Assembly (NCBI RefSeq): GCF_041886205.1 | Contig: NZ_CP169029.1 | DNA from: Escherichia coli | GTDB lineage: Bacteria > Pseudomonadota > Gammaproteobacteria > Enterobacterales > Enterobacteriaceae | Strand: one strand, 5' to 3' | Length of the DNA stretch: 64,000 nt | Shown here: piece after piece, positions 43,001-46,000 of the stretch | Position numbering within the stretch: the first letter of the stretch is position 1 | Layout of the letters: each line of letters starts with the position of its first letter | Made by a program: the position numbers

Positions 43001-46000
43001 TGCAGGAGGGTAACCGGTTGCATTACCTTGCCAACCGTGCCGGTATCAGAGGCCGGTTCAGAGATGCGGATGCGTACCATCTGGACCAGGCCTTTCCGCT
43101 GCTGATGAAACAACTGGAAATCATGCTCACCAGCGGTGAACTGAATCCCCGACATCAGCATACCGTCACGCTGTATGCGAAAGGGCTGACCTGCGAAGCC
43201 GACACCCTCGGCTCCTGTGGTTACGTTTATCTGGCTGTTTATCCGACACCGGCACCCGCAACCACCTCATAACCCCGAAGCTCTCACCTTTAGCACTACC
43301 AGTTACAGAGAACTTAAGATGAAAACATTATCCGACACACATGTACGGGAGGTATCTCGCTGCCCGTCTCCCGTCACCATCTGGCAGACACTGCTCATCC
43401 GACTGCTGGACCAGCATTATGGCCTCACACTGAATGACACACCGTTTGCCGATGAACGTGTGATTGAGCAGCATATTGAGGCAGGCATTTCACTGTGTGA
43501 TGCGGTGAACTTTCTCGTGGAAAAATACGCGCTGGTGCGTACCGACCAGCCGGGATTCAGCGCAGGAACTTCGTCGCAGTTAATCAACAGCATTGATATT
43601 CTCCGGGCACGCCGGGCAACAGGTCTGATGACCCGCAGCAACTACAGAACGGTAAATAACATTACTCTGGGGAAGCATCCGGAGGCGAAACAATGAAACT
43701 TTCCCTGACACTGGAAGCAGACAGCGTTAACGTGCGGGCACTGAACATGGGGCGCATTGTCGTTGACATTGATGGTGTAAATCTCGCTGAACTGATTAAC
43801 GTGGTCTGCGATAACGGCTGCTCCCTTCGTGTTGTTGATGAATCTGACCGGGCCTCAACAGACTGCACGCCACCATTTGCCGCCCTTACCGGCATACGCT
43901 GCAGTACCGCTCATATCACAGAAAGGGACAACGCCTGGCTGTTCTCGCTGTCGCATCAGACAAATGACACCGGCGAATCAGAATGGATTCATTTTACCGG
44001 CAGCGGATATCTGTTACGTACCGGTGCGTGGTCGTACCCGGTTCTGCGACTTAAACGGCTGGGCCTGTCAAAAACGTTCCGTCGTCTGGTTGTCACACTT
44101 ACCCGACGTTATGGCGTCAGTCTCATTCATCTGGATGCCGGTGCTGAATGTCTGCCGGGTTTACCCACTTTCGACTGGTAATCCGGAACTTCACAACATG
44201 AAATCATTAACCACGGAAACAGCGCTGGATATTCTGATTGCGTGGCTGCAGGACAATATTGACTGCGAATCGGAAATTATCTTTGACAACGATGAGGATA
44301 AAACGGATTCGGCAGCACTGCTGCCCTGCATTGAACAGGCCAGGGAAGATATCCGTACCCTGCGCCAACTGCGGCTTCTGCACCTGAACCGGTGAGTTTT
44401 ACTCATCATCTCATTCACCATACTTCATTCCCCCGACGCCAGCCTGAATACGGCTGGCGTTTTCGTTTATAAACCAAAAGGGAAACCGATAATGTCAGAC
44501 ATCACAATCTCCCGTCCGGAAGTGGTCACCGGGCATACGGACGTTATTTGCTCAACCTCAGTCAGCCACATTCTGGCTGTGCGAAAGACCACACTGCTGC
44601 AAATCGACACACTTATCCGGCAACTGGCTGAAATTTCAGTACTGACGGAAAGTATTGGCGGTAAAACCGCACTGGACTGGGCGATGAAACAGGATTTTCG
44701 CTGCGGTTGCTGGCTGATGGAAAAGCCGGAAACCGCAATGAAAGCCATCACACGGAATCTTGACCGCGAAATCTGGCGTGACCTGGTGCAACGCTCAGGG
44801 ATGCTGAGTCTGATGGATGCGCAGGCACGTGACACATGGTACCGGTCACTGGAATACGATAACTATCCGGAAATCAGTGAAGCGAACATTCTGAGCACAT
44901 TTAAACAACTGCACCAGAACAAGAATGAGGTATTTGAGCGAGGGGTCATCAACGTCTTCAGGGGACTGAGCTGGAATTACAAAACTAATCGTCCCTGCAA
45001 ATTTGGCAGTAAAATTATCGTCAACAATCTGGTAAGGTGGGACCATAGATTTCATCTTATCACCGGACAACAGGCTGACCGGGTTGCCGACCTGGAAAGA
45101 ATGTTGCATCTGTTCAGTGGCAAACCAGTCCCCGATTGCAGGGAAAACATCATCATTCATCTGGATGACCACATTCAGTCCGCTCAGGGTCAGGAGTGCT
45201 ATGAAGATGAGATGTTCAGCATCAGATACTTTAAGAAGGGTTCCGCGCACATCACATTCAGGAAGCCAGAACTGGTTGACAGGCTGAATGACATTATTGC
45301 AAAACGTTATGCGGGAAAAGTCCCCTCTTCAGTATAAACTTACACGCATCACAGTCCTGAGTCTCGTCCGGAACAAGACTGGCAGGTATATTGCGTTCGC
45401 TGAGCCATTAATGATAATGCCTCAACTGAGTTCAATATACCTCCATGTACAACAACTGTGCTTTGGGGGCTACATTGGGGGCTATATTTTTCAGACAAAA
45501 GAGCCTATATCAATTTAAACAATGAGATAAAGAAATCTCGCCATTCCCCTCTGGGGAGAGGATTAGGGTGAGGGGCGCAAACCCGCTCCGGGGCCATTAA
45601 TTACCCTGAATTTGATTATTTACACCACGGTAACAGGAACAACATATGCAGTTTGACTGGAGTGCTATCTGGCCTGCCATTCCGCTTCTGATTGAAGGTG
45701 CCAAAATGACCCTGTGGATCTCGGTCCTCGGTCTGGCTGGCGGCCTGGTGATCGGATTGCTGGCAGGTTTTGCACGCACCTTCGGTGGTTGGATAGCCAA
45801 CCACGTCGCGCTGGTCTTTATTGAAGTGATCCGCGGCACACCTATCGTCGTCCAGGTGATGTTTATCTATTTCGCCCTGCCGATGGCGTTTAACGACTTA
45901 CGCATCGACCCATTTACTGCGGCGGTGGTCACCATCATGATCAACTCCGGCGCATACATTGCGGAAATCACGCGTGGTGCGGTGCTGTCTATTCACAAAG

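Follow-up and report, generated by a model that had tools for sequence, protein, structure and literature searches.

Insertions of pap pathogenicity islands "into the gln operon (glnP-glnH)" have been described previously (Biggel 2020, PMC7686366; Royer 2021, PMC8097792). The gln insertion site is already published, and the feature characterized here, positions 45338-45645 of a 64,000-nucleotide stretch of E. coli DNA (contig NZ_CP169029.1 of assembly GCF_041886205.1; hereafter, the window), is the attR, that is, the right-hand junction, of an integrative genomic island at this known non-tRNA site. The papGII-type islands of strains 2/0 and SCU-387 share with the window island the insertion point and the integrase type, an att core that is the same except for a loop variant, a right module ending in a DUF4942 gene, and glnH at attL; the integrase of the window's lineage (int390) is 98% identical to that of strain 2/0 over the 260 aa compared. 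On the other hand, the cargo is different. The window carries cdiBAI and a catalase-peroxidase/cytochrome b562 module beside a toxin-antitoxin/antirestriction backbone; no pap operon with papGII was seen in it, PapC/PapG similarity being absent (E ≤ 1e-3), and papC/papG were also not found in relatives in the ~27 kb that the island extends beyond the window. Furthermore, strain 2/0 differs from the window in having ISEc10 between the DUF4942 gene and attR, and right-end DNA of the strain 2/0 type is only ~89% identical to the window.

The window island also resembles the P4/CP4-57-type islands that occupy tRNA genes (pheU, pheV, leuX). These likewise encode an integrase with PF13356, PF22022 and PF00589 domains, they have backbone genes in common with the window island, and some of its cargo is interchangeable, at ~100% identity, with the pheU island of JML285. 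Unlike these islands, the family found here sits at an intergenic BoxC hairpin, or at a look-alike in ulaE, and consequently has several alternative insertion sites. The BoxC/PIT/TMECO intergenic repeats of E. coli were described by Holder et al. 2015 (PMC4666352), and the same repeat has also been named HPGQ by Kaplan et al. 2016 (PMC5100583); in both studies it was treated as a DNA structure (triplex or quadruplex). In the former, PIT/BoxC elements were reported to be without promoter or terminator activity and to be hypervariable through a mechanism that was left unclear, with no integrases nearby (PMC4666352). In contrast to this literature, in which the repeat is a structure, it acts as attB at the locus described here.

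The features assigned in the window are as follows.

1-45545, no strand assigned: visible part of the island, 45.5 kb of an expected ~73 kb, extending past the left edge of the window
33371-33595, minus strand: AlpA-like small DNA-binding gene, a candidate excision/regulatory factor (TBLASTN with a PF05930 protein)
38044-45337, plus strand: conserved right-end module (ORFs; Pfam assignments from near-identical loci and RefSeq annotation of related islands)
44492-45337, plus strand: DUF4942 gene, the last island gene (exact 281-aa protein on record with PF13708)
45338-45545, plus strand: island-side arm of attR, identical in ten loci
45464-45484, plus strand: tandem TGGGGGCTA-cat-TGGGGGCTA, a putative arm-type integrase binding site
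45546-45558, plus strand: 13-bp crossover core CCCCTCTGGGGAG, the top of the BoxC hairpin, common to attL and attR
45546-45645, plus strand: the 100 bp that remain, on the promoter-distal side, of the 138-bp native glnH-glnP spacer (comparison with 6EVA and K-12)
45646-46305, plus strand: glnP, intact, 219 aa, identical to K-12 GlnP
46302-47024, plus strand: glnQ, intact, 240 aa, N219D being the sole change relative to K-12; identical to strain 6EVA

An earlier note on this DNA had placed an accessory island directly next to intact glnP and glnQ, with the junction falling between the last island gene and glnP, and each of these points was borne out. By ORF calls, a 308-bp non-coding stretch separates the end of the DUF4942 gene (45337) from the start of glnP (45646), GlnP and GlnQ are unchanged from K-12 apart from the single GlnQ residue, and ybiO and rlmF come after glnQ. 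When 5,426 complete E. coli genomes were compared by megablast, ordinary chromosomes aligned only from window position 45545 rightwards; similarity to K-12-type chromosomes begins at 45545/45546, 100 bp 5' of the glnP ATG, and positions 45545-46300 match strain 6EVA at 100% identity. Unaltered in the window are the last 100 bp of the spacer, which take in the right part of BoxC (45546-45575) and the ribosome-binding region of glnP. The arm on the island side (45338-45545) showed no similarity to the K-12-type spacer and is the same whether glnP, gabP, phnP or fabI comes next. Identical copies of the 281-aa DUF4942 protein, all of them with PF13708, were found in 166 collection blocks; in most of the loci shown the neighbour is glnP, and elsewhere it is gabP, phnP or fabI.

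The core CCCCTCTGGGGAG occurs once in the window (0.02 expected), as does the arm repeat TGGGGGCTAcatTGGGGGCTA (0.00 expected), and the same core, with loop variants, was found at attL of relatives at all sites. No second core or arm motif was found in the window, and a tandem-island reading was rejected on the basis of this single core and single arm motif. The tandem TGGGGGCTA-cat-TGGGGGCTA sits 62 bp left of the crossover core, and every attL examined has a similar repeat pair directly 5' of the start codon of the integrase. This pair would fit arm-type sites for the N-terminal PF13356 domain of the integrase, to which it putatively binds.

The repeat in the glnH-glnP spacer reads CCCTCTCCCCT(A/C)TGGGGAGAGGATTAGGGTGAGGGG and is one base off type A, CCCTCGCCCCTCTGGGGAGAGGGTTAGGGTGAGGGG. 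BoxC was scored with the pattern CCCTC[GT]CCCC-N3-GGGGAGAGG[AG]TTAGGGTGAGGGG (for the published consensus, see Table 1 of PMC4666352), and the glnH-glnP spacers of both K-12 and 6EVA matched it. Note that the K-12 RefSeq annotation has no repeat feature in this spacer. In strains 2/0 and ECCNB12-2, the glnH-side junction reads ...CCCTCTCCCCTCTGGGGAG/GATCTATT... and the glnP-side junction reads ...CGCCATT/CCCCTCTGGGGAGAGGATTAGGG..., where the slash marks the junction. A short identical core is present at both junctions, that of attL being read in relatives, and the uninterrupted empty site equals the left part of attL plus the right part of attR; strain 6EVA, which is of the window's own lineage, has the empty site. 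Among the relatives examined, joining attL and attR restored the K-12 spacer exactly at yjdP-phnP, with no chromosomal base lost, and restored the spacers at ycjD-fabI and glnH-glnP except for strain point differences. Since the two halves rebuild the empty spacer, the recombination was conservative and site-specific, indicating that window 45338-45645 is attR.

The earlier note had concluded that glnH is missing. Its underlying observation was reproduced, as no GlnH-like sequence was found 5' of glnP, or anywhere in the 64-kb window, by TBLASTN with the real 6EVA GlnH as the query (E ≤ 1e-3), and the best window match to an approximate GlnH query had an E value of 0.94. The conclusion itself, however, is very probably wrong, the impression having been set by a window that ends inside the island. 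Among the 5,426 complete E. coli genomes, glnH is present at at least 80% of its length in 5418 and absent or partial in 8, and in 5401 the glnH-glnP site is empty and uninterrupted. In eighteen genomes glnP is bordered by an island or ISEc10; these 18 accessions are exactly those with a glnH/integrase junction, and in all of them (18/18) glnH is intact beside the island integrase. Full maps were read for strain 2/0 (island of 58 kb) and ECCNB12-2 (27 kb), where the order is dps-glnH, a tyrosine integrase ~220 bp downstream, the island, DUF4942 and glnP. The two junctions are on the same strand in 17 of the 18 genomes and span 27-115 kb in the five that were worked out, and in NZ_CP182371.1 attL and attR are inverted, lying 1.6 Mb apart on opposite strands. 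Taken with its relatives, the source genome very likely has glnH, displaced rather than deleted. Note that the window starts inside the island, so that its own glnH and attL would lie outside the view and the presence of glnH is inferred from relatives.

The exact DUF4942 protein led to two such relatives, the complete genome CP057953.1 and the draft GCA_017787525.1. The right end of the CP057953.1 island, together with its glnP flank, is 98.85% identical to the window (right 11 kb), with 98.8% identity between its gln-site island and window 34544-45545. The left end of that island reads mntR-mntS-opgE-ompX-rhtA-dps-glnH/int(390 aa)-RR-HK-..., and its right end, ~63 kb from the left junction and on the same strand, reads ...DUF4942/glnP-glnQ-ybiO. 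In the draft, contig 4 matches window 41000-55338 at 99.993% identity, and contig 8 reads dps-glnH/int390 in a backbone that has the same GlnH and OmpX alleles as 6EVA and, like the right flank of the window, is 99.93% identical to 6EVA. On the left, window 1-8919 has a 100% match in another draft contig, ACAEOM010000008.1. This contig extends ~36 kb further left, past katG, cytochrome b562, a porin, IS66-family elements, aphA and an afu/uhpC-like cluster, before it reaches an integrase. This integrase, read to mid-gene, is identical to int390 in its C-terminal 260 aa, and its region is 100% identical over 12 kb to a contig that reads glnH/int390. The contig coordinates place the expected attL at about window position -27,500, giving an island of ~73 kb, and glnH should be found ~27.5 kb left of window position 1. 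The exact combination of integrase 3' end and spacer allele was found by BLAST in no complete RefSeq genome, the top matches being mostly 80%-identical pheU-type integrases.

No integrase was found in the 64-kb window. In CP057953.1 and GCA_017787525.1, the 390-aa int390 lies at the far end of the island and has PF13356, PF22022 and PF00589 domains, with the His-x-x-Arg motif and the C-terminal Tyr region readable in its sequence; the integrase of the window's lineage shares 54% identity with a P4-family integrase of the pheU type. The AlpA-like gene at 33371-33595 matches the PF05930 (Phage_AlpA) protein of the CP057953.1 island with 94.7% identity (E = 3e-46). The right-end module consists of genes for a GTPase, DUF932, antirestriction, RadC, DUF987, a CbeA/CbtA toxin-antitoxin, DUF5983 and DUF4942, all co-directional with glnP, so that the last seven kilobases of the island face glnP. 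An NCBIfam scan of ten island proteins gave no useful names. The matches show the island to be a mosaic: for window 1-10120 the identity to island DNA of JML285 and ACAEOM010000008.1 is 99.96-100%, the JML285 island that shares the left 10 kb being integrated at pheU, and the middle of the window (about 10-34.5 kb) differs from the CP057953.1 island.

This mosaic structure, together with the arrangement in NZ_CP182371.1, means that the left end of the island could be rearranged, in which case glnH would still be present but the left-hand DNA would lie away from it, either through an inversion or through recombination with a pheU or pheV island via backbone or IS sequences. Island backbone and IS66-family copies are repeated among such islands, and the left 10 kb of the window is essentially identical to a pheU island, as would be expected from such an event. 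However, the sole contig that is 100% identical at the left end joins an integrase of the gln type and not of the pheU type (98% against 54% amino acid identity), and the strand agreement of the junctions in 17 of the 18 genomes, with their 27-115-kb spans in five, also speaks against a rearrangement, which we therefore consider unlikely.

A deletion of glnH, perhaps with its neighbours, as or after the island arrived would leave GlnPQ without a binding protein. The window, devoid of GlnH-like sequence, is compatible with this, and true losses are known at the gln locus in rare genomes, as glnH is 5'-truncated in GmF046 and IS26 stands in place of glnP in FORC_042; glnH is absent or partial in 8 of 5,426 genomes. 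These real deletions, however, look different from the window junction, which is a precise att site with its core and the rest of the spacer intact and with neither truncation nor an IS scar. Moreover, glnH is kept in every complete genome with the same junction and in the closest relatives of the window, and the 100%-identical contig runs past the window edge to the matching integrase. Loss of glnH is accordingly very improbable. An assembly chimera joining an island contig to glnP, which had been raised with the earlier claim and for which one could cite the frequent breaks of draft assemblies inside the island (e.g., one contig starts at 41000 and another ends at 8919), was rejected as barely credible, because the 180 bp across the junction (45441-45620) recur exactly in six independent assemblies, one of them a complete chromosome, and consist of the canonical core and arm of an island family seen at several loci.

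The explanation we prefer as a whole, in which the feature is the attR of a ~73-kb island inserted conservatively at BoxC, with glnH displaced and the operon split, appears highly probable. A P4-type tyrosine integrase encoded at the far left end would recombine the island attP with the loop of the BoxC/PIT hairpin, the target being the repeat in the 138-bp glnH-glnP spacer and the exchange being conservative. The first ~38 bp of the spacer would remain with glnH at attL, and the last 100 bp would remain with glnPQ at attR. Judged from the sequence, the insertion left every gene intact and split glnHPQ. To our knowledge, the only described glnH promoters, glnHp1 and the NtrC/sigma-54 promoter glnHp2, lie upstream of glnH. 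In the split operon, glnH would keep these promoters and glnPQ would be cut off from them; on this separation of glnPQ from its promoters the earlier note was right. Overall, the earlier interpretation stands as to the island junction and the promoter separation, and fails as to the loss of glnH.

Transcription of glnPQ may then start at an unmapped promoter or come, as read-through, from the island genes that point the same way and end with DUF4942. Consensus scans predicted no intrinsic terminator and no plus-strand sigma-70-like promoter in 45338-45645. The predicted folding of the spacer RNA weakens from -50.1 to -37.1 kcal/mol owing to replacement of the left hairpin arm. Read-through from the island, uncoupled from nitrogen control, is the most likely outcome for glnPQ that we infer. 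GlnH is expected to act in trans in the periplasm, so that the transporter could work provided that glnPQ is expressed. Because glnPQ is uncoupled from the nitrogen-regulated glnH promoters, high-affinity glutamine uptake may be regulated differently, and this may apply to some 0.3% of the complete E. coli genomes, among them uropathogenic pap-island lineages. The case also illustrates that gene-missing calls are unsafe when a window ends inside an island, the operon here being split and not truncated.

The junctions point to a dispersed structured repeat as the target of a P4-type integrase, and this would explain the occurrence of one island backbone at several non-tRNA loci. It is possible, and we propose it tentatively, that the integrase of this island family attaches not at a tRNA gene but at the hairpin (CCCC-N3-GGGGAG) of the dispersed BoxC/PIT/TMECO repeat. 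With an attachment site of the BoxC type, one integrase could place islands of 27-115 kb at many intergenic sites. If this is true, islands can split operons, glnHPQ in this case, without destroying any gene, and a mechanism would be at hand for part of the hypervariability reported at the repeats. In the literature searched, we found no paper linking BoxC/PIT/TMECO, or the other insertion sites, to an integrase, and the connection may be a small new point. The attL pattern was not found in a scan of one genome per species; the island family was thus not detected outside E. coli strain-level diversity.

Seven sites were seen in all, namely glnH/glnP, yjdP/phnP, ycjD/fabI, lptG, gcvP, gabP and the ulaE look-alike. 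The same integrase, with the same arms joined at the same hairpin, was found at at least six further BoxC-like sites besides the gln site. Two of these, yjdP/phnP and ycjD/fabI, hold TMECO 22 and 9 in K-12, and the empty K-12 sites equal the left part of attL plus the right part of attR. Other insertions are located downstream of lptG, downstream of gcvP and upstream of gabP; the gcvP insertion was seen only in TUM9803, and its K-12 copy, ygfF-gcvP, was matched by gene neighbourhood only. In addition, a relative with 85% identity at the DNA level is inserted at the look-alike CCCCGCCGGGGAG at the start of ulaE.

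The same P4-type tyrosine integrase and island ends were found at at least six chromosomal sites besides glnH|glnP (loci L013, L015, L010, L021, L023, L079, L098 and L099). As listed below, the joining point at every one of these other sites was a BoxC-type hairpin, CCCC-N3-GGGGAG; the window retains the right part of such a repeat at 45546-45575.

Other insertion sites of the island, each at a BoxC-type hairpin
yjdP|phnP
ycjD|fabI
after lptG
after gcvP
before gabP
inside ulaE

The empty yjdP-phnP and ycjD-fabI sites of K-12, the two checked in that strain, are published BoxC/TMECO copies, and the gcvP site corresponds to a published copy by gene neighbourhood only.

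At attL in relatives (7687-7914 in L071, the glnH|integrase end of CP057953.1, and 5784-6000 in L018), the integrase gene lies approximately 220 bp 3' of glnH on the same strand. The integrase gene was also co-directional with the upstream gene at four other insertion sites. It is conceivable that the nitrogen-regulated glnH promoters give read-through into the integrase gene.

Window 1-10120 matched, at 99.96% identity, a segment of the island that JML285 (NZ_AP024114.1; L006/L034) carries at tRNA-Phe (pheU). Cargo modules have evidently been swapped between islands with different integrases. The features of window 1-10120 are given below, along with those of a probable contact-dependent inhibition locus, whose genes were identified solely from their size and position.

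1-10120: catalase-peroxidase, orphan cdiI, ISL3, IS66, T6SS remnants and helicase
2143-2403, minus strand: orphan CdiI-family immunity gene (PF07262), near the window start and separate from the putative cdi locus
16361-27919, minus strand: probable contact-dependent inhibition locus, comprising a 3259-aa ORF (likely CdiA) and, upstream of it, a 588-aa ORF (likely CdiB)
12973-16364: several small ORFs downstream of the putative CdiA ORF

In the complete genome NZ_CP182371.1, the glnH|integrase junction (BLAST hit H140) was located at 2.567 Mb on the minus strand and the DUF4942|glnP junction (H3) at 4.195 Mb on the plus strand. The two island junctions are 1.6 Mb apart and inverted relative to each other, which implies that a large part of the chromosome has been inverted and that one of the breakpoints lies within the island. 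True lesions of the gln operon do occur, albeit rarely: GmF046 (L100) retained only the 3' third of glnH, and FORC_042 (L101) had IS26 in place of glnP, with glnH and glnQ kept.

On the right flank, the glnQ-ybiO spacer (47025-47163) was approximately 140 bp longer than in CP057953.1 and ECCNB12-2; the longer form was also present in K-12 and in the empty-site strain 6EVA, and the extra DNA looks like a REP/BIME-type element polymorphism. A tRNA-Ser(GCT) called by ARAGORN at 57864-57948 (minus strand) falls inside a long ORF (57544-59832) that corresponds to dinG by synteny with related genomes; the call is probably a false positive.
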